Part shown: positions 8,601 through 37,616 of the stretch, piece after piece
Layout: the number at the start of each line of letters is the position of its first letter
Numbering within the stretch: position 1 is the first letter of the stretch
Virus record (IMG/VR): IMGVR_UViG_3300037067_013349
Length of the DNA stretch: 43,790 nt
Reading direction: 5' to 3' (one strand)
Source of the DNA: an uncultured virus (IMG/VR IMGVR_UViG_3300037067_013349)
Taxonomy: Duplodnaviria > Heunggongvirae > Uroviricota > Caudoviricetes
Made by a program: the position numbers and the translations under genes
The notes under the pieces: model-generated
The model's input: only the letters and a program-made list of their open reading frames with translations
Told to the model about the DNA's origin: nothing
The model's database searches: none

Positions 8601-11600
8601 TGGACCACCGCCAGGACCAGTAGCACCGGCGGCACCATCAGCACCAGTTGAGCCAGTCGCCCCAAGTCCGCTAGCACCCTGCGGGCCAGTTGAACCGGTA
8701 GCTCCGATTGGGCCACCAGCAGGGCCAGTTGCGCCAGTGAGTCCAATACCAGTAGCACCAGTAGCACCAGTCGGGCCACCAGAAGGGCCGGTAGCACCAG
8801 GAGTGCCAGTTGCACCTGTCGCTCCAATACCAGTAGCTCCAGTTGCACCAGGCAAACTGATTCCAGTCGAGCCGGTTGCTCCTGATGGACCAGACGCACC
8901 ACCAGTAGGACCGGTTGCTCCTATCGGACCCGTCGAGCCCGTGGCACCAGCTCCTGTCGCGCCGATAGGTCCGATTGGTCCCAGCGACCCTTGCGGCCCT
9001 GTCGAGCCAGTCGCCCCTGTCGGACCGCCGCTGGGGCCGGTAGCTCCAGCCGCACCGGTTGCTCCAGAAGCACCAATGATACCAGTTGAAGACCAAGATA
9101 GATTACGATAACCGTCTGTGACTAATACCTGACCGGCTGAGCCGTCGATATTTGGGAATCGCATGTTGCTAATAACAACATTCTTCCCGGTGCCCCATGC
9201 TGAGAGTTGTAAATCCTCCCCAGACACTGAATGGATGACCGATATTTGTAGGCCGCCTGCGTCATCGTATTGTAGCCCAGCACTATCAATTAAACGGCCG
9301 TGAGTACCAGCAAATGGTATCCTATTTGGTGTGAGCCGCGTCCCATCGTTCAGAATAAAGCCTTTACGAGCACCATTAGTTGTGATTGTAAAGTACAGAT
9401 CATCTTGTATGAATTCAACTGCACCAGCTTCTGGTACTGCTAGAACGTCACCAGACTCCATTTTCACCGGTGCATTACCTGGTGCAGCTTTACCAGCTTG
9501 AATATGCAATCTTGCAGTTGGATTATGTATGCCAATACCTGTTTGCTGCCCAGTGACCACAACCGTTTCATCCGCTCTCATTCGCTCCAGTGGATGATAG
9601 AAGTTGGTCAAACGAGTCGCGTTATATTCGGGAACACCAGCGTTATTGTCAAGAGTGACAGTCCCTAACCAGCGATATCCCTTATAGTTGCCACTGGCAA
9701 CGAAGACCGGGACGCCATCTAAGGTTGCAAGACCGTCTGAATCAACTTGTATCCAGTATCCCGCTGCCAAATCGTCCGCGAACACACCAGACGTATGACT
9801 AACGACGCAAGCATACGTGTAGGAATAGAGAACTCTTTGGCCTATTGAATATGATGTCGCGGTAGCCCAATCTTCAATACGGCTCTCAGAAACAGGAGTA
9901 TATTCAACATACTTCAATTCGCCAATAGTAGCAAACCATAGTTGATCTGCACCATCTATCTCCTGCATCGGATATGTGCACGCAGTCACATCAATGCGAT
10001 AAAATCGATATTCTATCGCATTATCGAAAGTGAAATAATCAGACCATATATCAACGCCAGATGGCGGGTCGACATCGGTTCTTGTGTCCAAGACCGACCA
10101 ATTGACATTATCATTCGAGCCAGAAAATGTCCATGTCCTTGGCAGTGATGGATAATAAAGCTTGGCTTTAAATGCGTATTTGTTGATAGCCTTCTTCACA
10201 TATGGACCAAAGTCATATGTGATCCACATAGGCGTTTGGAAAGGATCGCCTGGCGTGTAGCCAGTGCCACCAATTTGAACACCCCATCCCGGATTTCCAG
10301 GCGTGTCTTCTTGGTTGAAAGCGTACCAACCGTACAGATATGTGCCACCGACCTGGACACCAGTTGAACTGGTAATGACCATGTTTGGCGTGGGATCGAC
10401 AAACGACGTCATTACCGCTGTACATGTAGTCGTTCCAGTATTGTATATGCCATCAGACGGTACAAACTTCCAGGGTGCGAACTGAATGTCAAAAGACGTG
10501 GCGTTTACAAATGATGCGAAGACATCATATGTTCTATTGGCAATTAATGGATTTGCACCCATATCATTGACAATATTCGAAACTGTTGGGGCAGTAGCAA
10601 TATTGACGACATCCCAAACACTATTGGTGTCATCATATAACCTAATCAAACTTGATTCTACGAAATTCCAACTTAAAATGGTGGAGCTAGTTATTTTAAG
10701 ATTGCCGCCAACTATGTCGCTGTCAGCAGCGTCTCCGCCATTATCAACCCATGACAAATTACCATAGCCGTCTGTTTGTAGGACTTGGGTTGGAAGGCCG
10801 TTATCTCTTGGAAGATCAAGCGCACCTAATATAATATTACCAATCGTTCCTGCCGCGATTGAGATGTCGCCTGTGTCTTTCTTCCTCTCAACAATGTTGT
10901 AAAAATTGCCTATCAATGAGTTATTGAAATAAGGTGTACCAGCTATATCATATAACGACAATATCCCAAGCCATCTGTATCCTTTGAAATCTCCAGAATT
11001 GGCATAGACAGGAACACCATCAAAAACGCCTAGCCCACATGCTTCAACCAAAATCCACAAACCGCTTGCTAAATCTGTAGCAAAATCACCTGAAGTATGA
11101 GCAGAGAGGCATGCATAGACGCTATCGTGAATAACTCTATCGCCAACATTATAAGCTGTACCAGTTTCCCAATAGCTGGCTCTTGAATTAGCTGGAACAC
11201 CGCGTACGAGCTTAATCTCATTTAGCTCAACATACATCGCCCCATAACCAGCGTCTGCGGGGCAATTGGTGATGAGCTTATAATAGCGATAAGCTATTCC
11301 ATTAGAAAATGTATAATAAGCACTCCATGTTTGATCACCTGGGCCACTTATGCCGGTTCTCGAATCCAACAGAACGTAATCGACGCCGTTCTTTGAGCCG
11401 TAGAGGGAGAATTCGGTTGGAAACGCTCCATTGTCGTTTGCCCGTAAAGCATATTTATTAACAATGGTTGGAATGTTGAAGTCGTATTGTATCCAAGCTG
11501 AGGTAGCTAGCGGAATTGGTGTTGATGACCAGCAACGAGCCACATCGTCACTAAAAGCGTTCCAAGCATCATATAGTTCACTACTTGCACTACTGACCTG

Positions 11601-12926
11601 TGGTGCTGGCGTAGCATCAGATGTCATTGTCGTGGTGCATGTTGTAGTTCCAGGATTGTTAGCACCATCAACAGACACAACTTTCCATGGGGCGAAATCG
11701 ATATCAAACGCAGTCAGCGTACCATTATAGACGGCGAACACATCATAAACCAAATCTGACTCTAATGCATTACCACCTAAATCATTGGAAAGGTTAGAGG
11801 CAACAGGTTCAGTCGCTATATCGAGCAGCTCCCAAGCAAGCACGTCAGTATTATAGAGACGAATGTGACTTGAGGAATAGAAGCTCCAGCTTAGAACATC
11901 GCCAGCAGAAGCTTCTAATCGACCACCAACAGTATCACTGCTCTCGCCACCAGGCACAATCATGCTATTAACATAACGAACTGTCGCTACGTCATCTGCT
12001 ACTGATGGGGTCGGTGTGTGATTGTTGAGGAACTCGTTATCCGTCCCAAGATCGACCGCTGGAATGCGGAATGTATTATGATTAATGACGTTGTTGTCTG
12101 AACCAGAATCCAAGGTGAATGATGATCCGACAGCCCGCTCTACCAATGCGTTGTTCTCGATAGTATTGGAACTTGCACTTACGAGCTTTACAGCGTCCAA
12201 ATTGTCATCGATTTTGTTATAGTGCAGGACGTTGCTGTCTGAATTCTGAACATAAAAGCCAATAGTATTCGACTTAGATGTGCTCTCAGTGATTGAGTTA
12301 TTGTCAGAATAGACGATAGAAAAGCCCGTATTGACGTTAGAATCACTAATATTTTCTTCACCGTGGTTTCCGGTGGAGTTGAAAATACCGATACCATCGG
12401 CATTGTTTAAGGTTGTGTTATTCGAAATTGTGTTATCGTTCGAAGAATTCTTGAGTACGATGCCGTATTCGCGGTTGCCGTCACAAGTGTTATTAGTTAT
12501 GACGTTATTTCCGCTTCCAGTTAATTCGATACCGTTCTTATTCCCTGTGCACACGCACAAATCAATAGTAAAGACGTCTTCTGGAGATGAGTTATCAAGG
12601 AGAATACCAGCTTGGTTGTCTGTAGATGCTGTCACTGTGAATAACTTAAACATGCCGGACACAGCAGTAATCCGGACAGTCGGTGCAGACGTCCCATCTC
12701 CTCTAATAATCGTTGTTCGTGGATCGTCAGTATAAATATTGAGGATCTTGTTGATTGTTAGATTCTCGGTATATGTCCCCGGCCTGACGTAAATAACGTC
12801 TTTCTCAATAGCAGCATTAATAGCCGCCTGGATAGTAGTGTATTCATCATAGTCAGTAGAACCGACGCTGATGGTGTAATCAGCAGTTGCTTTAGTGACT
12901 ATTCTGTCGGTATTTCTTAACGTCAT
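5670..12926 (-). CDS. Collagen-like tail fibre / virion surface protein with a right-handed beta-helix, two discoidin(F5/8)-like plus CBM5/12-like modules, and about 1100 aa of G-X-Y repeats
   Basis: [22 protein letters not shown] followed by GI.L..S.NN.I.NN repeats; WIQYDF..NKY..P....GS....W..LD.R..YRYY twice; W.TGTAY.VG.RV..YAC..HTSG twice; GAT/GAS/GPQ repeats. Confidence 0.85.
5775..9075 (-). repeat. Collagen G-X-Y coding repeat region
   Basis: Recurring [23 protein letters not shown] units; GC-rich periodic DNA. Confidence 0.9.
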
Positions 12927-15409: not shown

Positions 15410-15711
15410 GCCTTAGCACCATCACAATAACGCGGCAGTGCCCAGTCATTGATTATTTTGTCGTTCTACCGAACAACATCGAATCGAAGGCTACTGCTGT
15501 GCCCGTTGCTGGCTTTGTAGCGGCCACAGGCGGCGTTGTGAATAGGCTGTCTCAGGCGAGCAATCAAGGCAGACATGGCTATCGATTCGGCACTCAAGAA
15601 TGGGTTGAGTTATCCGAAGCTATTGGCGGTTCAAATGCAGCGTTGGAAGCTGGTAAGACCCTGTATGGCACTAACGTGCGAACCGACAAGCCTAAGCCAT
15701 GGGAAAGCTAG
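15406..15711 (+). CDS. Hypothetical protein
   Basis: Coupled ORF, convergent with kdsB. Confidence 0.65.
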   Translation: MSLSTITITRQCPVIDYFVVLPNNIESKATAVPVAGFVAATGGVVNRLSQASNQGRHGYRFGTQEWVELSEAIGGSNAALEAGKTLYGTNVRTDKPKPWES

Positions 15712-16478
15712 AACGGGCGATTCATTCTAATAACGAACGCCATATAATCTTCTTTAGTATCGATACCATAAGTGGGTTCGTTGGCGATTCCTACTAAGAT
15801 TTTATGACCAAAATAGAGTGCCCGTAGTTGTTCAAGACTCTCCATAGTCTCCATCTGGCATGGAGGATGTTGGACGAGTTTTAATAAGAAATCTCGCCTA
15901 TAAGCATATACACCCACGTGCCGATAAAAAATGGTTCGCAGGAATTGACTGTTATCGGGTTCTGTGCCACCGTCTAATATGCCAGGATATGGAACAGGAC
16001 CTCGGCTGAAATACAACGCCCTGTTCTCATGATCCAGAACAACCTTCACACAAGATCGGTTGCAAAGCTGCGACAGTGAGCGAATCGGAGAAGCAATTGT
16101 ACTCATCACTTCTGCTGGATTCTCTTTGAGTAGCTTGACGGCCAAATCGATCAATGAACCCTTTATCTCAGGTTCATCAGCTTGCACATCGACGATGATA
16201 TCAGCGTCGGCGTGATCTGCAATTTTACTAGTAGCTAATGCTACTCTTTCCGTGCCATTCTCTGCCGCACCGGTCATCACGACGTCTCCGCCGAATGACT
16301 CTACTTCCTTACGAATAGCCTCGTCATCAGTCGCAACGCACATACCTGTCGAATATATAGATTGCATCGCTGACTGATAGGTATGGTGCAGAACAGATTT
16401 GCCGGTATTACGCAACAGAAGTTTACCGGGCAAACGAGACGAGCCCATACGAGCAGGAATGATAATTTTACACTTCAA
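15708..16478 (-). CDS. kdsB: 3-deoxy-manno-octulosonate cytidylyltransferase (CMP-Kdo synthetase)
   Basis: IIPARMGSSRLPGKLL, VATDD, GTERVA, VQADEP, VKVV..ALYFSR, HVGVYAYR, ESLEQLRAL, GIDTKED motifs. Confidence 0.93.
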   Translation of the reverse strand: MKCKIIIPARMGSSRLPGKLLLRNTGKSVLHHTYQSAMQSIYSTGMCVATDDEAIRKEVESFGGDVVMTGAAENGTERVALATSKIADHADADIIVDVQADEPEIKGSLIDLAVKLLKENPAEVMSTIASPIRSLSQLCNRSCVKVVLDHENRALYFSRGPVPYPGILDGGTEPDNSQFLRTIFYRHVGVYAYRRDFLLKLVQHPPCQMETMESLEQLRALYFGHKILVGIANEPTYGIDTKEDYMAFVIRMNRPF

Positions 16479-16491
16479 GGGCTGGATACTC

Positions 16492-17982
16492 CCTGTAGTC
16501 CTGTAATTGCTTGGGAACGAACACTGTTCTCCCTTTTATGTGGAGTAGTTCCGCGTCGACCTGTAGCCCTGTAATCCTAACGCTATTCTCATTATCACTT
16601 CAACATTTCAGAAAAATCCTGCAGCCCTATCGATCCGGCCATCTTCACTGTTTGCGCCTGTAGTCCTGTAATTGCCTAGTAGTTACCTCCATTGCGAAGA
16701 GGCTTTGTGACGTTAATCACGACCTGTAGTCCTAACGCTATTCTCCATTTTACCGAGAACGAAATGGCCCTTTCCCTGTAGTCCTAATGCTTCATTCGGC
16801 ACCCTACTTCACCTGTAGTCCTAACGCTATTTTCATTAATCGTATCAAAGTCGTAATCGAGCGACCTGTAGTCCTGTAACGCTATTCTCCATTGCGATCA
16901 ATCGCTACACGCGGCGGCAAACCTGTAGTCCGCAGGGTAGCCACTACGAACAGATGGACCTGTAATCCTGGAAACGAACGCTCTATTTGGGAGCCTGTAG
17001 TCCTAACGCTATACCAGAAGTATGGCGACCTGTAGTCCTGTAGTTACCTGGGAACGAACGTTATTCTCCATTGCTTCTCCGAAGCACCTTCGGAATGTGG
17101 AACCTGTAGTTACCTGGGAACGAACGCTATTCTCCATTGACGGTCGCTTCAAGCAATATATGGGACTCCTGTAGTCCTGTAATCCTGGGAACGAACGCTA
17201 TTCTCCATTTGGGAAGGCGATACTCAACAGCATTCTGCACCTGTAGTTACCTGGAACGAACGCTATTCTCCATTCACTTCGGTTGAAGTCTGGTCCACCG
17301 CTGACCTGTAGTTACCTGGGAACGAACGCTATTCTCCATTAAAACCGAGCATACCATCTCCCCTGTAGCTGCTAAGCAAATACGCCATGGGAGCCTGTAG
17401 TCCTGTAGTTCTAATGCTGTTCTCCATTCATAAACACAAACCGCATAAATCGGAGTGTCCTGTAATCCTGTTTTGAGCCTGCCGTATCAGATTCCTGTGA
17501 CCCTGTAGTCCTTCTCCATTTTACTCGGTCAGATAGGCTCCATGTGACTTACCTGTAGTCCTGTAATTCAAGCGGGCCAAGAATACATCCTGTAGTTACC
17601 TGAGAACGAACGCTACTCCATTTTTCAGAAGAGATACATCATCCTGTAGTCCTGTAGTTTACCTGGGAACGAACGCTATTCCATTTGCCGCAAATTCGAC
17701 AGGCTATACGATCTCCTGTAGTCCTGTAGTTACCTTGGGAACAAACGTTATGCTCCATTAAACTGGGAACGAACGCTATTCTCCATTAGTTGCTCGACTC
17801 GCTGTTCGGTCTGCGCCCTGCAGTTACCTGGGAACGAACGCTATTCTCCATTTGGCGCGTCCGTGATCTATATGCCTGTAGTCCTGTAATCCTGGGAACG
17901 AACGCTATTCTCCATTGCTTTGGCTAGTGAAGTCTTCTAGCTTGGTCCTGTAGTTACCTGAGAACGAACGCTATTCTCCATT
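16492..17982 (-). CRISPR. CRISPR-like array 1: about 27 degenerate repeats; full repeat 36 nt (+ strand CCTGTAGTTACCTGGGAACGAACGCTATTCTCCATT); spacers mostly 27-31 nt
   Basis: Perfect 36-mers at 17103 and 17305; variants beginning CCTGTAGTCCTGT or CCTGTAGTCCTAA; unique spacers between them. Confidence 0.9.
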
Positions 17983-17989
17983 TCGCTAT

Positions 17990-18547
17990 TTAGGTTGTTT
18001 CCGGCATCTTGTCTTTCTGCACGGCCTCGGTAGCAATAGCATATTGCAGCCTGACATAGCTCGAAGCCAATATCAGAAGCGTGTTGAGATTGACGGTGAT
18101 TTTCTCCTTGGGACATTCCAGGTGCACCAGTATCTCATCATTGACCTTTCGGCCTTTTATCTCAACCGCTCCAACTTCGTTGTTCAAAATCTTGCCGTTG
18201 ATCCAAGCGGTGACGCCGTGACCGCTTGGATCGGCCCAATCGTCCGACAGACCGGCAGCCGCCATGAAAGCCAAAAGGCTTTTGCCCTCTGGCGATCGTG
18301 CTAAGCTAGAAGACATTCCAGAAGGTTTAGGGAACTTTACTGGAAGCCTCACCACTATTTCGCGCTCCACAGGAGTTTCGTCGTCTCCGAATTTGACTAT
18401 CCATACTTCCGTGGGCGGATCAGAGGTATGGCAGAGTCGAACCAGCGATATGAGTTGAGCCTTACCTTCGAGTTCCCGATACTCGCTGAGAGACCGCTGC
18501 TTTTTGTAAATGGAGCACAAATCTCCACGCTTCAAAACTGACTTCAC
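17990..18547 (-). CDS. Hypothetical protein between the arrays
   Basis: 185-aa ORF, GGGGAG Shine-Dalgarno, stop 7 nt before array 1. Confidence 0.75.
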   Translation of the reverse strand: MKSVLKRGDLCSIYKKQRSLSEYRELEGKAQLISLVRLCHTSDPPTEVWIVKFGDDETPVEREIVVRLPVKFPKPSGMSSSLARSPEGKSLLAFMAAAGLSDDWADPSGHGVTAWINGKILNNEVGAVEIKGRKVNDEILVHLECPKEKITVNLNTLLILASSYVRLQYAIATEAVQKDKMPETT

Positions 18548-18618
18548 ATTACTACTCCCCTTGAGCCATTGAAAATCATCATTGATGTCCGTATCTTTTT
18601 ATAGCTCGACGAATAGGG

Positions 18619-19140
18619 TCAATTAGCTTCGAGTTCAATTATCTTAGCTTGAAGCTCGGCAATTTGCGCCCGAAGAGCCTCGTTCTCCGCTTCCAGTGTC
18701 TTGATGCGGGCTAAAAGCTGGTCCTGGACTGCCTGCATCGACGCCTTGACCTTGCGGGCTTCCTTATATGGGTCGGCTGGCTTGGCCCGGCGACGACGTG
18801 GCGGAACGTCGGATTTCGTCTTGGCGAGCATACCGTTGTACATGTCGCGAAGCTTGCCATCCTTCCATTGATATTCTTCCGGATAATGATTGAGCATCAT
18901 CCGTAATTCGGAGAAGGTCAAGCAAAGGTCGCTGACATATTCATCCAGGATGGCCAGAAGCTTGTTGTTGTCCAGGATCTCGTTGTCGGCCCGAAAGTCT
19001 GGGTCTTCATAGACACTGTTCAATAGAGTTGCCCGCCGATAGGCATTATGGCCACTCGACTGCTGCAGCTTCCGGACTTGCTGTAAGAGCTTCTTGTACT
19101 GCCTTTTGCAGCGTGGCTGGGTTGGTGCGGTCGACCTCAT
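18619..19140 (-). CDS. Hypothetical protein with C-terminal coiled coil
   Basis: AAGGAGG upstream; LLARIKTLEAENEALRAQIAELQAKI heptads. Confidence 0.75.
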   Translation of the reverse strand: MRSTAPTQPRCKRQYKKLLQQVRKLQQSSGHNAYRRATLLNSVYEDPDFRADNEILDNNKLLAILDEYVSDLCLTFSELRMMLNHYPEEYQWKDGKLRDMYNGMLAKTKSDVPPRRRRAKPADPYKEARKVKASMQAVQDQLLARIKTLEAENEALRAQIAELQAKIIELEAN

Positions 19141-19252
19141 CGATAGTCCTCCTTAGTCTTTTATGGAAAGCTGATAGTTGTGCACATTGGCGACAGCAAA
19201 ACTTCTTGTTGCCGTTCAATGGTGTCTTACATACTGGACATAAACCTGTCAT
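19046..19252 (-). CDS. Small zinc-ribbon protein (CPVC...KFCCRQC)
   Basis: CxxC plus FCxxxC motif; overlaps the next ORF. Confidence 0.45.
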   Translation of the reverse strand: MTGLCPVCKTPLNGNKKFCCRQCAQLSAFHKRLRRTIDEVDRTNPATLQKAVQEALTASPEAAAVEWP

Positions 19253-19295
19253 TGTGCGTATTAGAGAACCTGTAGTTATCGCGTTACGGGCTTCG

Positions 19296-19691
19296 TTACT
19301 GTAATCCTGCTTCTGCGTTTTGTTCCTCGACAGGCATATCGACCTCTATCAACTCCTTGACGCCAAGCTGAGAGGTCGTTACTCTTATCGCATTGTTGAC
19401 GATATCCCAAATCTTTACTTCGCGTTCAACTATCCCTTGGCAGTTGCAGTGTACTAAACCGCTCATTCTTACAGATACACAGCAACCGGTTGGGTTGTCC
19501 AGATGTACCTTGAATTGTCGGCGCTCATAATCCTGCCAAGCCCAAATTCGCTTGCCGCAAATCTCGCAGCGCGTTATAGCTGGATAACCGTGCCAATTTG
19601 GATCAAACCAAAGTAAAGCTGCCTTGCCGATAACTATCCCAACAAGAATGCATACTGCAAGTATCAAAAACTTAATCACGTAAATTCTCAT
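19296..19691 (-). CDS. Hypothetical membrane-anchored Cys-containing protein bounded by repeat cores
   Basis: N-terminal TM helix, CEICG; repeat-like core at 19709 upstream and at its own 3' end. Confidence 0.6.
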   Translation of the reverse strand: MRIYVIKFLILAVCILVGIVIGKAALLWFDPNWHGYPAITRCEICGKRIWAWQDYERRQFKVHLDNPTGCCVSVRMSGLVHCNCQGIVEREVKIWDIVNNAIRVTTSQLGVKELIEVDMPVEEQNAEAGLQ

Positions 19692-19720
19692 ATGCGCCGT
19701 TCGGAGCCCCCGCAGTCCTG

Positions 19721-19900
19721 TTATGTTGTCTGCAAGAAGTCTCTCATTTCGATCAATTCATCAACACTTCTGAATGACATTTGGTAGCCATCCTTTTCTA
19801 GTATGAGAATCAATCCTTGCAGCATAAGCTTGAGTCGTCGAAAATTTTCCACATTGTTTAAAAATACGAGAAGTTCGTGACGCCACGAGTTTGGCACCAT
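19721..19900 (-). CDS. 59-aa ORF exactly filling the space between two repeat units
   Basis: Hand-translated MVPNSWRHELLVFLNNVENFRRLKLMLQGLILILEKDGYQMSFRSVDELIEMRDFLQTT*; ATG abuts repeat 19901, TAA overlaps core 19709-19721. Confidence 0.55.
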   Translation of the reverse strand: MVPNSWRHELLVFLNNVENFRRLKLMLQGLILILEKDGYQMSFRSVDELIEMRDFLQTT

Positions 19901-20581
19901 CCTGCAGTCCTGTAGTTACCAAACACTGGATTTCCAAACGAGATTTATTAAACCTGTAGTCCTGTAGTCTAATGCTATACTCCATTGTATCGCTATGTCG
20001 CTACTTTGCGAAGAGCCTGTAGTCCTGTAGTTACCGAACGCTATTCTCCATTTTCACGTTCCACTCGATCTTGTTGAAACTCCTGTAGTCCTGTAATCAT
20101 AACGCTATCCCAAAATGTCAGGAGGGCGTCATTAGTCCTGTAGTCCTGTAGTTACCTGGAAACGAAATTTCACCACAAAACCGAATTTTCAAAGAACTCC
20201 TGTAGTCCTGTAGTCCTAACGCTATTCTCCATTACCGTAATTTATGGGGTACCTGTAGTCCTGTAGTCCTAATGCTATTCTCCATTCATACATTCATGTA
20301 TTTTGGCGGCAATGCTCCTGTAGTTACCTGGGAACGAATGCTATTCTCCATTTGAGCAAGATCGAGCTGTGCACCGGCATTTCCTGTAGTTACCTGGGAA
20401 CGAACGCTATTCTCCATTTGTCAACAACGCTGGTATACTCCGATTCCTGTAGTCCTAATGCTATTCTCCATTTGAGAAGTGGAACGGCCTGTGCTTCAAT
20501 GCCTGTAGTCCTGTCCTATAGTCCTAACCTGTTCTCCAGAGGTTCTTACCACCTGTAGTCCTGTAGTCCTAACGCTATTTT
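19901..20581 (-). CRISPR. CRISPR-like array 2: about 12 repeats of the same family
   Basis: Repeat starts at 19901, 19953, 20016, 20082, 20137, 20199, 20252, 20317, 20383 (perfect 36-mer), 20446, 20502, 20552; spacers mostly 27-32 nt. Confidence 0.9.
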
Positions 20582-20743
20582 TCACCATTTTTTACTGCAA
20601 AGAGCCAAAGCAATGTATGTCACTCCTATGAGAATCTGCAACCCCCAAAAGGTCCAAATTCTGATGACACCCATTACCAATAAAATGGCAAACGCTACAT
20701 TCGATATTCCAGACAGCATATCGACAATTTTTCTTCTGGTCAT
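20582..20743 (-). CDS. 53-aa two-TM membrane protein between repeat units
   Basis: Hand-translated MTRRKIVDMLSGISNVAFAILLVMGVIRIWTFWGLQILIGVTYIALALCSKKW*; degenerate repeat catgtagtaccttgaaacgctatt immediately upstream. Confidence 0.55.
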   Translation of the reverse strand: MTRRKIVDMLSGISNVAFAILLVMGVIRIWTFWGLQILIGVTYIALALCSKKW

Positions 20744-20847
20744 AATCCATGTAGTACCTTGAAACGCTATTAGGTGGTTCCCATCGCCTAACTATTGTCT
20801 TCCTCTTCCCTCAAGTGTTGTTACTCATGATTCAAGAGCAAGTGCTA

Positions 20848-21399
20848 CCTGTAGTCCTGTTATACTTCTTCTGGCAGCCTGAAAATATTAACCCACCTGC
20901 CATGGATTTTTGTTTTGCGCTTCACCAATTCGCCCGGTGTTCTAGCCAATGCTGCCATCACGCGGTCTGATGTTTTTGTGCATTCATGTGGCCACCCCAG
21001 CCGCTCGGCTATCAAATGTAACAACCCCTCGTCACCAAACATGACGGCTGGATTGTCCGTTTCTCTCAGCACTTCAACAGCAGCATCACATGCTCGCATG
21101 TTTGAACCATCTAATCTTAGCGGCCTGCAGTCCTGTTATTCAATCAATCAACGTGAAAAAGGGCGGACGACCTGTAGTCCTGTTATTTGCCATGTGTCGT
21201 CTGACTCACTTCACATGTATAATATATAAAATTCAGCTTGTGCTTGTCCTGCAGTCCTTAATACCGTGTCCCAAAAGGCGGTGTCCATTGATGGAAAAGG
21301 ATATAAATGCAAACTATTTCTGCCGCGAACGTCAAATTAAATGATACAAGCGATAGTAACGTTGAATGCCAATAAGTGGCGGGACAAGTCCTGTAGTCC
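20848..21399 (-). repeat. Dispersed minimal repeat cores CCTG(T/C)AGTCC(TGT) at 20848, 21124, 21171, 21248, 21390
   Basis: 10-13-nt matches to the conserved end of the array repeat, same orientation. Confidence 0.75.
20860..21099 (-). CDS. Hypothetical protein flanked by repeat cores
   Basis: 79 aa; stop overlaps CCTGTAGTCCTGT (20848-20860); core at 21124 upstream. Confidence 0.65.
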   Translation of the reverse strand: MRACDAAVEVLRETDNPAVMFGDEGLLHLIAERLGWPHECTKTSDRVMAALARTPGELVKRKTKIHGRWVNIFRLPEEV

Positions 21400-21407
21400 G
21401 TATCCGT

Positions 21408-21436
21408 ATTATATACTACTATAAAGTGGCTGTCAA
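21408..21436 (-). promoter_or_regulatory. Perfect sigma70 consensus promoter (TTGACA-17 bp-TATAAT) pointing into the repeat region
   Basis: + strand tgtcaa at 21431-21436 and attata at 21408-21413, 17-nt spacing; predicted start about 21401, just before the first core. Confidence 0.85.
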
Positions 21437-21452
21437 GTCTACAGCACTTTGT

Positions 21453-22598
21453 TCATTGCCTAACCGTAACGTCGATATCAACCTTGTTACAAGATCGTTG
21501 AATCAACGACTGCATTTGTTGCCAGTCCCATCGAGTCGTCTCGGTGTCACCAATACGTCCAGCATATGACAAATAGTAATCGGTGGGCGGGGCGAAAATG
21601 ACAAGATGACCGATGCCGTTTGTCACTAACAATCTCGTCACGTCATTGGCGAGATGAGTGCTCCAGGTCTTGATGAAATCACGCCAACGCCGCTCATATT
21701 TCGCTTTGTCGGCGGTCGAGCCCTGCTTCCTAGTCTTCTTGCTCTCCTGAATGTCCAAGGTGTTTCGTGTGTGCTCGACATCTTCGCCACGGCGAAGACG
21801 GAATATGGTTCTGCCATTGAACCGAAAAGAAAATGGCCGGTGTTGTGCTGCCAATAGGAATGCAGTCTTGTTCTTGTTAAGCGGCAGTCTCACCTTCGGA
21901 ATTGAATGACAGAGATAAGCTTGCCATCGACCGTCGCGTTCCTTCAAATCGACGCCCTTCAACTCCCATTCGCCAGCCGTAATTTTCCACAACGCATCGC
22001 GGACAGAATGTAACCGGTAGCTCTTGGTCTTGATGACGAAAACCATCGGACCGTAGCCGTCAACATCGACCTCAAGCTTCCAGTCTTCATCCTTGGTTTG
22101 TGGGACGATGATCCGACAATCTCGTTTGTGCAGCGGAATATTGCTGCGTTTGGACGATTGCGAAAGACCACCACAGCCAGCGAGAACGGTTATCCAGCGT
22201 GGATAAGCTGATCTGTATCCACGGTGGTGTAACAAATCCTTAACCGCCTTATGCACCGCCAACTTACCCTCTCTGCCCATTAATGGGTGCTCGGCTGCAA
22301 TGATTTCGTCAAGCTGCTGAGCGATTTCGTCGCTGTAGGGGTCGACTGGGCATCGAATGCGAGGACCGACTCTGCTTTCCGGCTCATAGAGCCATCGTTT
22401 GTCCTGTTCGAGCCATTCACGAACCAATAGGTGGTTATTGGCGTCAAAATGAAGCTGTAGCCAAGCCGACATGAAATCGTTGACAATTTGTTGAATGTCG
22501 GTGGCCAGTGAGAGCAAATGCTTTTTGTGCGACTTGAAGCTGTCGTCACTACCGATCAAATCAACCCGTTTGTTCTTGATGACTCGGAAATCTCCCAT
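21453..22598 (-). CDS. cas12f: Cas12f/TnpB-family protein B, predicted nuclease-dead and C-terminally truncated
   Basis: LWKITAGEWELKGVDL..DGRWQAYLCH WED signature; RuvC-I position reads TAFLLAA, RuvC-II position HLVIFAP; WDWQQMQSLIQ..DIDV ends the protein; clear paralog of 22825..24240. Confidence 0.75.
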   Translation of the reverse strand: MGDFRVIKNKRVDLIGSDDSFKSHKKHLLSLATDIQQIVNDFMSAWLQLHFDANNHLLVREWLEQDKRWLYEPESRVGPRIRCPVDPYSDEIAQQLDEIIAAEHPLMGREGKLAVHKAVKDLLHHRGYRSAYPRWITVLAGCGGLSQSSKRSNIPLHKRDCRIIVPQTKDEDWKLEVDVDGYGPMVFVIKTKSYRLHSVRDALWKITAGEWELKGVDLKERDGRWQAYLCHSIPKVRLPLNKNKTAFLLAAQHRPFSFRFNGRTIFRLRRGEDVEHTRNTLDIQESKKTRKQGSTADKAKYERRWRDFIKTWSTHLANDVTRLLVTNGIGHLVIFAPPTDYYLSYAGRIGDTETTRWDWQQMQSLIQRSCNKVDIDVTVRQ

Positions 22599-22611
22599 AT
22601 TGTCTCCATAA

Positions 22612-22687
22612 AGGTAACTCTGGCGAGGGCTAACACGGTACGGAATGCCCGCAGCTATTCTCGCCTTCGAGACGTACAGGACGCCTC
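22612..22687 (-). ncRNA. tracrRNA-like RNA copy 1 (3' tail AGUUACCU)
   Basis: 76-nt repeat; 5' hairpin GAGGCGU-CCUGU-ACGUCUC; GGCGAG/CUCGCC stem; tail complementary to repeat AGGUAACU. Confidence 0.75.
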
Positions 22688-22705
22688 TATTTGTGATTTA
22701 TAAAA

Positions 22706-22781
22706 ACAGGACTCTGGCGAGGGCTGACACGGTACGGAATGCCCGCAGCTATTCTCGCCTTCGAGACGTACAGGACGCCTC
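22706..22781 (-). ncRNA. tracrRNA-like RNA copy 2 (3' tail AGUCCUGU followed by a U-run)
   Basis: Near-identical 76-nt copy; tail complementary to repeat ACAGGACU. Confidence 0.75.
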
Positions 22782-22824
22782 CGGTTGTGATTCTGGATAT
22801 TAGTAGCGTGAAAGTAACTATTAA

Positions 22825-24240
22825 TTAACTATCCCGATTTTCGGATTTAATCTGCAGTCCCGGTTCGTCGTCTTCCTTCTTCCGCGACTTGCCTCCTTGC
22901 TTAATGACCACATTTATACCAGCAGCCTTACCAACTTGCTCCAACTGGCGTTGCATATGGTACCAGTCCCATGCCGTCGATTCGCTACGGCCTATCTTAC
23001 CAACATGGGACAAATAGCGGCTATCACGCCATTTCCCGGTCGGTTGATAAGTCACGAGACGCCCAATGCCGAATTTGACACAGGTACTGATGACTTCTGC
23101 GGCCCAATTGTTGTTGAAGGTTTTGGTCCGATTGCGCCAATTGCGTTCCGATTTCTTTCGCCAGTCATGAACCTTACGGCCATGATTCTTACGAGCACTG
23201 GAAGCATACTTGTAGCTTTCGTTCTTACCAAATCGTTGAAGCGTCAAAGAACGACGAGCCCGTTTAATATGCTTGCAACTTCGCATTCGCATTTGCGTCT
23301 TGCCGTTGATGCGGAACAGAACAGCACCATATCGACCGGCTGATACGATAGCCGTTTTGGTGCTGCTGAACGATGCCGTGACGCCAGGAATCAGGTAGCA
23401 TATATCAGCGTACCACTTTCCTTCGAACTGGACGAGTTGGGAAGTGTTGAGAATATAATCGCCAGATGCAATTTTCCACAACACGCGACGAATTGGCGAC
23501 AACTTACGCCCACCGGTGGTGAGCCTAAACGTCATCGGACGTAGGAACCTTTTACCCTCAATCTTTTCATAGCGAACGGTCAGCTTCCATGGCTCATCAT
23601 TGCTACGGGGCACAACAAGATTGCTGTTGCTTGTATAGAATGGAACAGGTAGAGGCTTAGACGATTGTGGGTATTCTCCAAGCCCTGTTAAAATCCTAAA
23701 CCATCGTTTGTATTTGGATTTCGTCGCTGGTGCTTTGATAAGCGTCTTGCTAAGCCGATTGGTTACAATGCCAATCGGCTTAGTTCCAAGATTGGCATGC
23801 TGGGTGGTCAGCAGGCCATAGATCTGAATCCCCATTTCGTTGGTGTATGGCTGCACAGGGCATTTGATACGTGGCGGTATATCAACCTTAGGTTGATCTG
23901 ACGCCTTCTTTTTGCCGTTCTTGCCCTTCTTGCCATTTTTCTCGGCTTTTTGAGCCGCTGCCAGCTTGGCGTATTTCCGTGCCCACTCTTTGTCCTCCTC
24001 AATCCATTTGCGAAGGGCGGTTGGCGATCCAGCCTGTCGGTGCAATCGGAACCATTGACTATAAAAGTCGTTGGTAATTTGCTGCATCTGGCATGATAAC
24101 ATCACCAGACGTCTTTTCTCCTCGGCAAAATCGCCGTCACAGCCGCTCAATTCGACCCGAATGACTTTGGTGAGTCCATCAGGCTTCTTTTTACGCGGCT
24201 TCTTCGGGTCGTCTTTCACGGTCGTCTTCTTCTTACTCAT
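22825..24240 (-). CDS. cas12f: Cas12f/TnpB-family protein A, predicted nuclease-dead and C-terminally truncated
   Basis: TKVIRVEL N-terminal strand; KIASGDYILNTSQL..GKWYADICY; bridge region KYASSARKNHGR...RNRTKTFNNNWAAEVI..GIG; WDWYHMQRQLEQVGKAAGINV; GIDLG site reads IVSAG, EDL site reads YQP; no CxxC finger or RuvC-III. Confidence 0.8.
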   Translation of the reverse strand: MSKKKTTVKDDPKKPRKKKPDGLTKVIRVELSGCDGDFAEEKRRLVMLSCQMQQITNDFYSQWFRLHRQAGSPTALRKWIEEDKEWARKYAKLAAAQKAEKNGKKGKNGKKKASDQPKVDIPPRIKCPVQPYTNEMGIQIYGLLTTQHANLGTKPIGIVTNRLSKTLIKAPATKSKYKRWFRILTGLGEYPQSSKPLPVPFYTSNSNLVVPRSNDEPWKLTVRYEKIEGKRFLRPMTFRLTTGGRKLSPIRRVLWKIASGDYILNTSQLVQFEGKWYADICYLIPGVTASFSSTKTAIVSAGRYGAVLFRINGKTQMRMRSCKHIKRARRSLTLQRFGKNESYKYASSARKNHGRKVHDWRKKSERNWRNRTKTFNNNWAAEVISTCVKFGIGRLVTYQPTGKWRDSRYLSHVGKIGRSESTAWDWYHMQRQLEQVGKAAGINVVIKQGGKSRKKEDDEPGLQIKSENRDS

Positions 24241-24260
24241 TTAACATTCCCTATTGAAAA

Positions 24261-24336
24261 ACAGGACTCTGGCGAGGGCTAACACGGTACGGAGTGCCCG
24301 CAGCTATTCTCGCCTTCGAGACGTACAGGACGCCTC
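24261..24336 (-). ncRNA. tracrRNA-like RNA copy 3 (3' tail AGUCCUGU followed by a U-run)
   Basis: Third 76-nt copy directly upstream of effector A. Confidence 0.75.
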
Positions 24337-24507
24337 CGGTTTTCATGTAGGTTTATAGCTCCCTGCTGATGGTTGATTAACTTAAATCACCTGCGAGCTA
24401 CTTCTGTTATAGCCTCAGTGAAGCTATTAATTAACTGACTGAGCACATATTTCTCTGGGTTAAATCGTAGCAACCGTCGTGCTATAAGTACTATAGGGAG
24501 CCAAAAA

Positions 24508-25218
24508 ATGCGAATGAACAAACGGTACATCTACCCGCCACGTCCAAAAGACGCAATCCCTTTCAATCAGATTGGGATGTATAATCAGTACGGGTGGAAA
24601 GCCCAAACGAAATTCAATGATAAACGCACCGAAATAGCAATTGATGCGAATTCGGTCGAGATATTTAACCGCCACAAAGGACAACACAAGACATTTATGT
24701 TGTCCGACTCTTTACGAGATGAAATCGTCGCTGTTTGTCGCGATATTTTTGGGTTGGATGTGTCGCAGTGGTCATACCTCGATGGAGGGTTGCTTGATGG
24801 AAAGAGCAAACACATTGAAGGAATAGTGGTCATATGGGATATTCTGGTTCGCGAAGGCGATTGGCTCGTTGGCAGCACTTACCAAGAGCGATATGGATGG
24901 CTATTAGCAAAAGCAGAGGCCGCTGGTGGAGAGCCATTCATCGTCATCATAAACGGCCAAGAGTTTGACTTCGGCATCAGGCTCAGCGAGCACATCTTTA
25001 TGCCGCGATTCTGGGAGGATTTTGAATCTTGCTGGCAATTCACACAGAGAGTCAATAAAGCTGCCGGGTGGAGCATGGAGAATGGCGGTGAGCCTGTATT
25101 AGAAGGGATTGTGATGAAGGACCCTCAAGGAGTCTTAAAACCGGATAACGGGAAAGAAAAGAACAACACCGAATGGTCGGCCAGAAGCAGAATCAGAACC
25201 GGACGGCATCATTTTTAG
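24508..25218 (+). CDS. ATP-dependent ligase-like nucleotidyltransferase (adenylation domain only)
   Basis: QTKFNDKR (motif I-like), YLDGGL, IWDIL, EGIVMKDP; no OB domain apparent. Confidence 0.7.
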   Translation: MRMNKRYIYPPRPKDAIPFNQIGMYNQYGWKAQTKFNDKRTEIAIDANSVEIFNRHKGQHKTFMLSDSLRDEIVAVCRDIFGLDVSQWSYLDGGLLDGKSKHIEGIVVIWDILVREGDWLVGSTYQERYGWLLAKAEAAGGEPFIVIINGQEFDFGIRLSEHIFMPRFWEDFESCWQFTQRVNKAAGWSMENGGEPVLEGIVMKDPQGVLKPDNGKEKNNTEWSARSRIRTGRHHF

Positions 25219-37482: not shown

Positions 37483-37616
37483 GTTATTCTCCGTTTCGAG
37501 AGTGTATTTTAAAGCACAGGACTACAGTACAGGATAAAATACGTATTCAATATTAACAACGTAAGAGGTGTACCATCAAAACTGCATCACAATTTCCAGT
37601 AAGCTTAATAATCCCT

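Follow-up and report, generated by a model that had tools for sequence, protein, structure and literature searches.

The window, by which we mean the whole 43,790-nt stretch of uncultured-virus DNA analysed here, contains two repeat arrays, two Cas12f-like genes and a group of small genes interleaved with repeat sequence. The genes, arrays, lone repeat copies, promoter and RNA-like elements described below all lie on the minus strand. The repeat core CCTGTAGTCCTG matches the window 37 times with at most one mismatch, against 0.21 expected and a shuffle maximum of 2, and 36 of the 37 matches fall on the plus strand within 16492-21182. Array 1 (16492-17982) holds about 26 repeat units and array 2 (19901-20586) holds 12, both with mixed architecture. 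All 45 window spacers, including those of array 2, are unique, none of them recurring elsewhere in the window or in the loci retrieved from relatives.

In related phages the repeats are 36 nt long and regular, with spacers of 29-30 nt and a period of 65-67 nt. The window carries the same 36-nt repeat, but many of its units are variant; they are irregular, spanning 32-102 nt and often missing the 5′ module, and the regular ones have spacers of ~30 nt. The core (12-17 nt, ending in ACAGGACUACAGG) is the 3′ end of this repeat. Near-identical direct repeats, unique spacers of similar length and an adjacent cas effector gene lead us to assign the repeats of the window and its relatives to a CRISPR array. 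Among the 40 window ORFs no Pfam match to the adaptation genes cas1 and cas2 was obtained, and the window carries neither cas4 nor any tRNA gene that we could find. Rfam returned no family at gathering score over the whole window and none at E ≤ 1 over 16300-24500. A leader hairpin with a 9-pair stem (20770-20791) adjoins a degenerate first repeat (20748-20769), and the same hairpin stands ahead of the first repeat in the arrays of the related phage G001.

Several cores stand alone. Four of them, at 21390, 21248, 21171 and 21124, occupy 21124-21401, and the last two form a mini-array in which a 30-nt spacer (21141-21170) separates two 17-nt units, the first of them AATAACAGGACTNCAGG. The lone core ATAACAGGACTACAGG (20848-20864) adjoins the stop codon of o79, the core-like unit ATAACAGGACTGCGGG (19709-19725) separates o59 from o131, and GATAACTACAGG (19269-19280) lies 16 nt ahead of o68. 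Of the eight lone cores close to the small genes, six belong to the CAGGACU type, either exactly or with a single mismatch, and those at 19269 and 20748 belong to the GGUAACU type. Neither the spacers nor the lone-core ‘guides’ have self-matches within the window, and for nine such guides no seed of at least 10 nt matched elsewhere in it. A peptide encoded by each repeat (MENSVRSQVTTG) was considered and set aside, given that unit lengths are not multiples of three and that its ATG has no preceding ribosome-binding site. The o68 homologue of G001, however, has a repeat-encoded ATG of this kind as its sole possible start.

The two effector-like genes are a long paralogue, o471 (22825-24240, 471 aa), and a short one, o381 (21453-22598, 381 aa), which share 32% identity. 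o471 has no match in Pfam, PHROG or NCBIfam. Its structure model (pLDDT 79) matches Cas12f in Foldseek (E 1.7e-18), and a profile search retrieves Cas12f from the PDB (E 4.2e-18), with the match stopping before the zinc finger and RuvC-III. The GVDLG motif of Cas12f aligns with f-l-S-A-G in o471, where the RuvC-I aspartate is replaced, and the RuvC-II position in the Cas12f-like paralogues is occupied by Q, A or E. Neither a complete RuvC triad nor the zinc-finger (TNB) domain of a Cas12f nuclease is present. o381 likewise has a Cas12f fold and a profile match to Cas12f. Both paralogues lie beside arrays in all three related phage records (G001-G003) and also in two further loci (L035 and L036); a scan of metagenome_contigs returned short or truncated loci only, with no usable array context. 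We assign the array to these two paralogous Cas12f-like proteins, both C-terminally truncated and RuvC-dead; the initial annotation had not recognised a nuclease-dead Cas12f system here. Pfam detected no sigma-factor family among the 40 window ORFs, and o173 (18619-19140), considered as a candidate sigma factor, was rejected, its model (pLDDT 81.5) having no PDB match at E ≤ 0.001.

An RNA-like element of ~90 nt, here termed E, lies upstream of each Cas12f-like gene. E1 (24250-24338) precedes o471 and comprises two stem-loops and the tail AGUCCUGUUUUU, while E2 (22695-22783, tail AGUCCUG) and E3 (22601-22689, tail AGUUACC) stand in tandem upstream of o381. An alignment of 14 copies has a mean identity of 87% and 23 predicted pairs, which points to a conserved tracrRNA-like element. 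One copy in G002 is fused directly to TGACTACAGG and spacer-like sequence; the other copies end in a U-run.

The 3′ tail of E covaries with the repeat 3′ end, that is, with the core. There are four types of tail, and every one of them matches the repeats of the genome it comes from, a pattern that rests on few independent changes because the six genomes are related to one another. The tail AGUUACC accompanies GGUAACU in the window and G001, AGUCACC accompanies GGUGACU in G002, G003 and L035, and ACUUGCC accompanies GGCAAGU in L036, with AGUCCUG and CAGGACU confined to the window. Complements of the tail 7-mers occur 29 and 12 times in the window locus, and 20, 17, 13 and 4 times in the loci of G001, G002, G003 and L036, respectively. 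Core 21124 is complementary to the E1 tail at 15 of 16 positions. The predicted tail/core duplex is 7-10 bp, mostly 7-8 nt, and this shortness counts against the interpretation that we prefer below. Duplexfold energies for E with the repeat were about -26 to -29 kcal/mol on either strand for E1 and E2, and -26.4 versus -24.7 kcal/mol for E3, values that do not tell the strands apart.

Four small genes sit between these repeats: o79 (20860-21099, 79 aa, encoding a small soluble protein), o53 (20582-20743, 53 aa), o59 (19721-19900, 59 aa) and o131 (19296-19691, 131 aa). The ORF and core coordinates given by the initial annotation were all confirmed, as was its statement that the mini-ORFs run in the same direction as the arrays. 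The ATG of o59 directly follows core 19901-19912, and its TAA (19723-19721) adjoins the core-like CCCGCAGTCCTG at 19709-19720; o131 starts 17 nt past core 19709. o53 fills a spacer slot between the degenerate repeat 20748-20769 and repeat 20552, its ATG lying 3 nt past the end of the former and its TGA inside the 5′ end of the latter. The TAA of o79 adjoins core 20848-20859, and its ATG lies 24 nt beyond the end of core 21124-21135. Beyond o131, the zinc-ribbon-like o68 (19046-19252) starts 16 nt past core 19269. Since a core is kept at every gene border, o59, o53, o79 and o131 are each bracketed like a spacer.

The distances from core to start codon are thus 0, 3, 16, 17 and 24 nt, a range that allows no single ribosome-binding or processing geometry for all cases. 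Two phages provide three cases of an ATG directly after a core, namely o59 and two G003 genes, with ORFs 59, 114 and at least 200 aa long; this places AGGA 7 nt upstream, and a ribosome-binding role fits. The earlier proposal that the core serves as a ribosome-binding site therefore fails as a general rule and suits only those cases where the ATG directly follows.

To gauge chance ORFs, we filled each inter-core gap with mononucleotide shuffles of itself (20000 per gap); the observed sense-ORF length was reached in 2 shuffles for o131, 3 for o59, 17 for o53 and 51 for o79, so that sense ORFs fill these gaps far better than chance would allow. The G001 homologue of o79 has 96% amino-acid identity, with 28 synonymous and 3 non-synonymous differences and a dN/dS of 0.019. 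An HMMER search with o131 returned 87 representative homologues (clusters) at E ≤ 1e-3, in whose alignment C42, C45, H81 and C84 are invariant. A word-index search with o131 had recovered the query alone, a blank that reflects the sensitivity limit of that search; with o173 it also recovered only the query. Hydropathy suggests that o131 is a membrane-anchored small protein, and it gives two hydrophobic stretches in o53, in agreement with the two transmembrane segments first ascribed to it. o59 and o53 have no homologue in G001-G003 or viral_contigs and no Pfam or PHROG match; NCBIfam yielded one sub-threshold match (o59) and nothing above its cut-offs. For o79, the ESM Atlas returned only unnamed clusters at 0.90-0.91, inside the tool’s stated chance range. 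The homologue search that had been recommended for the small ORFs was thus productive for o131 and o79 and blank for o59 and o53. Taken together, the comparisons indicate that the mini-ORFs are real small genes.

The mini-gene junctions are crossed, with 0-1 differences, by contigs of four independent public runs: X3 record 8 (19100-19366), X4 record 15 (19686-19945), X5 record 21 (20494-20782) and X2 record 6 (20642-20911). These contigs are short (150-340 nt) and shallow, and their independent origin argues against assembly artefacts at these junctions. The contigs from the four runs also show loss of array units; they contain no presence/absence alleles of the mini-genes apart from one loose end at 19899/19900. 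There, a single low-depth contig (n = 1) diverges exactly at the boundary between the o59 ATG and its core, the sole hint of a recombination event.

Comparison with relatives showed where the gene content differs. o131, o59 and o53 have no match in any of the three related phage records, and removing them from the window restores the layout of G001, in which o68, array and o79 follow one another without these three genes. At its promoter-proximal site G001 has a different 70-aa ORF, and it lacks ~150 nt carrying cores 21171 and 21124. G003 contains further genes separated by lone cores, the two with a directly following ATG among them. Of the genes that follow the array in relatives, o68 and o173 recur in three loci and o185 (17990-18547) in two, L035 and L036 having also been examined; in each of the six genomes under comparison, a gene of the o68 family adjoins the last repeat or overlaps with it. 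Across these genomes, gene presence varies at cores. The initial annotation had suggested that the repeats act as cassette-insertion or recombination sites and had called for a presence/absence comparison among related phages; this comparison supports the suggestion, with o131, o59 and o53 bracketed by cores and variable at those borders. The regular arrays of G001, however, have no genes inside, which counts against the reading that we favour.

A sigma-70 consensus promoter, TTGACA-17-TATAAT (21408-21436), matches at 12 of 12 positions and points into the gene and array region, with its predicted start at core 21390. Between 15500 and 25000 a scan detected no terminator-like site on the minus strand, and at the cores it returned neither promoter-like nor minus-strand terminator-like sites. 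Dispersed promoter-like plus core units occur at 37505-37533 in the window, at three places in G001 and at one in G002. The mixed guide-plus-mRNA transcript proposed earlier gains indirect support from the promoter, from the absence of terminator-like sites in that interval and from the o68-family genes adjoining the last repeat. Likewise, a role for the repeat as a processing element is plausible, its core being complementary to the tail of the predicted tracrRNA-like element.

We tentatively favour a reading in which a co-transcribed array houses accessory genes as cassettes in its spacer slots, with the cores serving both as recombination borders and as RNA handles or processing sites. Of this reading, co-transcription, processing and recombination at cores are the parts that we infer. 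Real small accessory genes would sit within the phage CRISPR array of o381 and o471 or along its edges, and genes and array would form one minus-strand transcription unit starting from the promoter at 21436-21408. Within the repeat, it would be the core to which the E RNA base-pairs through its 3′ tail, and this pairing, followed by processing or effector binding, would separate mRNAs from crRNAs. Recombination from repeat to repeat would let genes be gained and lost as cassettes, and the core AGGA could additionally be used as a ribosome-binding site where an ATG directly follows.

The window arrays, being irregular, could be decaying, which also counts against this model. In the corresponding alternative, which we regard as unlikely, the array is dispensable and accepts insertions, illegitimate recombination brought in the mini-genes, and the lone cores are functionless remains of repeats. 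The irregular units of 32-102 nt, many without a 5′ module, the lone cores that keep only 12-17 nt, the variable distances from core to start and the lack of any spacer or lone-core guide match in the window are all compatible with such decay. It accounts poorly, however, for the presence, in six of the eight lone cores near the mini-genes, of the CAGGACU type, whose partners are the E1 and E2 tails specific to the window, rather than the ancestral GGUAACU type, for two lone cores lying exactly 30 nt apart, as if around a spacer, and for the three cases of an ATG directly after a core, where a rough estimate gives ~0.4 expected for ~25 lone cores. Rather unlikely, in our judgement, is the broader proposal that the repeat 3′ end is a general RNA punctuation or control signal, by which the dead Cas12f pair and two tracrRNA-like classes would recognise crRNAs and embedded mRNA leaders alike, cutting out genes or gating translation.

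Control at the level of DNA, in which the cores would be targets or operators of an E-guided dead Cas12f that switches transcription of mini-genes and crRNA units on or off, much as dCas12f does in RNA-guided repression or RNA-guided transcription, appears improbable. The effectors are predicted to be nuclease-dead and are truncated in the manner of published dCas12f proteins, as far as the available part of that report describes them (PMC13472631). The E1 tail matches the plus strand at 15 of 16 positions in 21129-21144, core 21390 coincides with the start predicted for the consensus promoter, and the dispersed promoter-like plus core units would suit such a role. Set against this are the absence of a sigma-factor gene by Pfam, with no PDB match for o173, a tail match of 7-8 nt for most repeats, which is short for a guide, and the U-run at the end of E, as in a separate small RNA.

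We consider very improbable a safeguard, presumably similar to CreTA, in which one or more toxic mini-genes, such as o53, would be silenced by effector and E RNA at the core of the mRNA start, tying retention of the CRISPR locus to the fitness of cell or phage. The small size of o53 (53 aa), its two hydrophobic segments and the position of its ATG 3 nt past a repeat end are in keeping with this idea, and E pairing would mask the core AGGA of o59. Repeat-like regulatory elements are also known in cas loci, according to the accessible portion of Shmakov et al. (10.1101/2023.03.03.530964). Against it, o53 has no homologue in G001-G003 or viral_contigs, its toxicity is hypothetical, and no spacer in the window partially matches a promoter there. 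Only a very small probability attaches to the idea that the ORFs are assembly chimeras or frames that happen to be open within long spacers: the lack of homologues and of Pfam or PHROG matches for o59 and o53, with one sub-threshold NCBIfam match for o59, is outweighed by the gap-fill test, the dN/dS of o79, the o131 family and the independently confirmed junctions, and for o79 and o131 the idea is already largely refuted.

Returning to the cassette reading, the locus resembles type V-F Cas12f systems with tracrRNA in its miniature Cas12f-fold effector beside an array with repeats of 36 nt and spacers of ~30 nt, and in a separate structured RNA, here predicted, with a repeat-complementary segment. 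It differs in that the effector lacks the RuvC-I aspartate, zinc finger and RuvC-III segment, in having two paralogues instead of one gene, in the absence of cas1, cas2 and cas4 from the window, and in being borne by a large phage with protein genes inside the array. C-terminally truncated, RuvC-dead Cas12f homologues, to which o381 and o471 are alike, have been described in RNA-guided transcription by dCas12f-sigmaE (Hoffmann et al., Nature 2026, PMC13472631), and the available text of that paper mentions a separate dCas12f cluster located close to CRISPR arrays, as well as a locus whose arrays are discontinuous. Compared with the systems in that text, the present locus has no detected rpoE or HTH partner (rpoE and sigma factors by Pfam among the 40 window ORFs), has a tracrRNA-like element where those authors found none, and is phage-borne, with paired paralogues and genes in spacer slots.

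The PeSL mobile regulatory cassettes of T4-type phages (Arbiol et al. 2010, PMC2839356; also PMC4122927), as presented in the accessible parts of these papers, are alike in that short repeats flank small, mostly unknown genes differing between close relatives, and in the shuffling of genes by repeat-repeat recombination, which at our locus would be the presumed mechanism. A PeSL, however, consists of a promoter and a terminator stem-loop, whereas the cores scanned here are neither and are instead CRISPR repeat ends. Stand-alone repeat-like elements and mini-arrays occur in CRISPR-cas loci (Shmakov et al. 2023 preprint, 10.1101/2023.03.03.530964), and solitary phage repeat units act as RNA anti-CRISPRs (PMC10651486). 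In the excerpts available, both sources describe, as here, lone repeat-derived units outside a main array, some of them two-repeat mini-arrays. Those units act through partial spacer-promoter matches, none of which was found in the window, or as decoys for a host effector; here the phage encodes its own effector and the units bracket protein genes. Integron cassettes differ in turn, as no integrase family was detected by Pfam among the 40 window ORFs and the core is a direct rather than a palindromic repeat.

The literature searched, with subscription journals outside its coverage, held nothing relevant on genes inside CRISPR arrays. Protein genes expressed within guide arrays are familiar from engineered Cas12a arrays. 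If the cores are working RNA signals, the locus would offer natural protein genes expressed inside a CRISPR array and handled by guide-RNA machinery. The short list of nuclease-dead Cas12f systems would then gain a phage-borne, two-paralogue form, possibly a heterodimer version of the Cas12f dimer, together with two matched classes of helper RNA and repeat. At 381 and 471 aa, o381 and o471 are candidates for very small programmable DNA-binding proteins. Even on the neutral reading, the locus shows large phages gaining and losing small genes at borders formed by CRISPR repeats.

The four mini-genes, small ORFs of 131, 59, 53 and 79 aa (o131, o59, o53 and o79), fill gaps between cores, the 12–17-nt 3′ ends of the CRISPR-like repeat. 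On re-checking, their minus-strand positions and core distances all proved correct as originally reported. They also fill these gaps beyond chance, as shuffles rarely reach the observed lengths: in 20000 shuffles per gap, a sense ORF equalling or exceeding the real one in length arose 2 times for o131, 3 for o59, 17 for o53 and 51 for o79. Contigs from independent public runs span the gene/core junctions with 0–1 differences, so the layout is not an assembly artefact.

Homologues were found for o131 and o79; o59 and o53 had no detectable relatives in three related phage records (G001, G002 and G003) or in viral contigs. o79 is 96% identical to its G001 counterpart, with 28 synonymous and 3 non-synonymous differences (dN/dS 0.019), and o53 carries two hydrophobic stretches. 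For o131 (19296–19691), a word-index search gave no relatives, and a full HMMER search recovered 87 representative clusters at E ≤ 1e-3, 36 of them at E ≤ 1e-10. The family shares a hydrophobic segment near the N-terminus, keeps P37, C42, C45, W52, H81 and C84 invariant and shows the conserved pattern WPAVT.C..C...W.WQ..ERR ... H..C.G. Its members are uncharacterised proteins of ~100 aa, predicted to be membrane-anchored, and Pfam holds no family for any of them.

The core CCTGTAGTCCTG matches the window 37 times at ≤1 mismatch (0.21 expected), 36 times on the plus strand at 16492–21182 and once on the minus strand at 37517. Of 22 matches to a second repeat module, CGCTATTCTCCATT, at ≤2 mismatches, 20 lie on the plus strand at 16736–20472. 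Splitting the region at cores delimits array 1 (16492–17982, ~26 units), array 2 (19901–20586, 12 units) and isolated cores at 19269, 19709, 20748 (degenerate), 20848, 21124, 21171, 21248 and 21390. Some repeat variants end in AGGACUACAGG, including a 27-nt short form without GGUAACU.

At least three repeat architectures occur together in array 1, namely single core, double core and the 27-nt short form, which is the repeat minus 17 nt of its middle; the G001 equivalent of this array is uniform, and the short form was not seen among the listed G001 repeat units. In one landfill run, contigs leave out 148 or 153 nt of array 2 (20233–20403), meaning that a near-identical phage has lost or replaced repeat-spacer units, and another contig diverges exactly at 19899/19900, the ATG/core boundary of o59. 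Immediately before the first repeat of several arrays lies a conserved minus-strand hairpin, UUAGGUG-loop-CACCUAA (window 20770–20791; relatives' loci L027 ~6263–6285 and 7812–7835, L028 ~6060–6085), whose stem varies and whose loop CCGGGAAC is complementary to repeat segment GUUCCCAGG.

Scanning viral contigs with the 16-nt core yielded 18 stretches, three of them in G001, a 184.8-kb record syntenic with the window (73–82% DNA identity). There, a 36-nt repeat, CCTGTAGTTACCTGGGAACGAACGCTATTCTCCATT, recurs regularly with 29–30-nt spacers, and a close variant forms arrays in G002 and in G003 (364 kb, rated complete). Clean arrays with a period of 66–67 nt also follow the effector gene immediately at L035 and L036, two loci that are more distant. 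The window itself encodes a 2418-aa tail-fibre-like protein (5670–12926, minus strand) with beta-helix, F5/8 type C and CBM5/12 domains and a long stretch of collagen repeats; this and the 167.8-kb length of the contig indicate that the window is part of a large phage.

Comparison with these phages bore out a presence/absence difference at repeat borders: o131, o59 and o53 are each absent from all three whole records. The minus-strand order in G001 is o381, further small ORFs, o79, leader hairpin, array, o68. In the window, o381 is followed by the promoter, four lone cores, o79, a core and the leader hairpin, then by a degenerate repeat, o53, array, o59, core, o131, core, o68. The orders thus place o131, o59 and o53 each between repeat ends. 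o53 occupies a spacer slot, with its ATG 3 nt past a repeat ending in CTACATGG and its TGA within AATGGTGAAAAATAGCG, with which the following repeat begins. Just downstream of its own consensus promoter, G001 carries a different hydrophobic ORF, of 70 aa. In G003, a gene run after an array is punctuated by lone cores, and two of its genes (114 and at least 200 aa) have an ATG directly after a core, as o59 does; this junction occurs at 3 of roughly 25 lone cores, against about 0.4 expected by a rough estimate.

Two proteins adjoin the window arrays, o381 (21453–22598) and o471 (22825–24240), paralogues with 32% identity that have no match in Pfam, PHROG or NCBIfam. Among 5.8 billion clustered proteins, only 11 belong with o471, itself included. 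Its AlphaFold model (pLDDT 79) matches Cas12f structures (E 1.7e-18), then TnpB, Cas12k and Cas12m; by sequence, the family profile matches Cas12f chains at E 4.2e-18. The Cas12f motif GVDLG aligns to f-l-S-A-G, the RuvC-II position is Q, A or E, and the match stops at the GI.V strand, with ~20 residues beyond; in this profile alignment the zinc finger and RuvC-III are not present. From the Cas12f matches, the replaced RuvC residues and the missing segments, o381 and o471 are therefore predicted to be truncated, nuclease-dead Cas12f-like proteins. Both adjoin arrays in 3/3 related records. Pfam assigned none of 40 window ORFs to a cas1, cas2, cas4, integrase or sigma-factor family. The two paralogous genes are kept as neighbours both here and in 3/3 related records. 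Cas12f acts as a homodimer, so o381 and o471 may form a heterodimer.

Each effector gene is preceded by a ~90-nt element, E, with three minus-strand copies in the window (E1 24250–24338, E2 22695–22783, E3 22601–22689) and 14 across six genomes, at 87% mean identity. It is conserved far above the effector proteins, which share 34–59% identity with o471 (closest relative 71%). The predicted fold has two stem-loops, a single-stranded tail and a U-run, with 23 pairs, two showing compensatory changes; Rfam has no family for it. The tail varies, and every variant is complementary to the repeat 3′ end of its own genome: AGUUACC with GGUAACU (E3, G001), AGUCACC with GGUGACU (G002, G003, L035), ACUUGCC with GGCAAGU (L036) and AGUCCUG with CAGGACU (E1 and E2 only). 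The two window tail classes, AGUCCUG and AGUUACC, thus correspond to two repeat-end classes; G001 tails are of the AGUUAC type only. Sense-strand counts of the 7-mer tail complements, taken for each genome in its own locus, were 29 ACAGGAC in the window (other genomes 1–14), 12 AGGTAAC in the window and 20 in G001 (others 0–1), 17 AGGTGAC in G002 and 13 in G003, and 4 AGGCAAG in L036 (in 8.3 kb). This covariation makes E a candidate tracrRNA-like partner of the repeat, and the core would comprise an anti-tail segment and, ahead of the spacer, a 5-nt ACAGG linker.

One G002 copy of E (L029 ~10690–10790, minus strand) is joined directly to TGACTACAGG and spacer-like sequence, a fusion that looks like a natural single-guide RNA. 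Far from the arrays, a dispersed unit of GTATTTTA, 6–11 nt and a core occurs once in the window (37505–37533, plus strand), three times in G001 (L038 ~500–532, L039 ~499–531, L040 ~477–509) and once in G002 (G002:C1:31144–31167). Its core fits the genome's own E tail type in the window and G001, with one mismatch in G002; the unit may be a promoter with a stand-alone handle.

Just past o381 lies a perfect TTGACA-17-TATAAT promoter (minus strand, 21436–21408), with core 21390 at its expected start site; a scan of 15500–25000 listed no minus-strand terminator-like site. In 6/6 genomes, a gene of the o68 family lies against the last repeat or overlaps it. It starts 16 nt after a core in the window, 49 nt past the last repeat in G003, and inside or beside the last repeat in L035 (9936–10325) and L036 (2203–2412). 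The sole in-frame start in G001 (L027 7305–7613) is an ATG within the repeat, and the first in G002 falls 3 nt past a core. Since this junction recurs in all six, direct reading from array into mRNA seems to be a long-standing feature of the family. Genes of the o68 family are zinc-ribbon genes, and in G001 the first ~20 residues would be encoded within the repeat.

The initial annotation's observation therefore holds; its interpretation, in which repeats may act as cassette-insertion or recombination sites or as processing or ribosome-binding elements, is supported in part. The best-supported reading of these sequences is that a dead-Cas12f CRISPR system has a co-transcribed array into which small accessory genes have been lodged, where repeat 3′ ends would persist as borders of the lodged genes. 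The comparative pattern supports gene gain and loss at cores. Two findings argue for working RNA elements at these borders over debris: the E/core covariation, and the window-specific CAGGACU type of 6/8 lone cores near mini-genes. Cores may direct cleavage, effector binding, AGGA masking or DNA-level control. Against the lodged-gene reading, the E/core complementarity is short, the lineages compared include few independent ones, core-to-start-codon distances vary and the window arrays are irregular. Spacers and lone-core 'guides' have no match anywhere in the window, and neither the 40 window ORFs nor a comparison of the o173 model with the PDB yielded a sigma-like partner.

A limited literature search found no natural protein genes in spacer slots. 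Shuffling of small genes flanked by repeats is known for the PeSL elements of T4-type phages (PMC2839356), and stand-alone repeat-like regulators are already known (10.1101/2023.03.03.530964). Truncated, dead Cas12f is likewise known from PMC13472631, where some proteins pair with sigmaE for RNA-guided transcription and a separate dCas12f cluster lies near CRISPR arrays. That paper reports no tracrRNA for its systems, whereas the system described here carries the tracrRNA-like element E.
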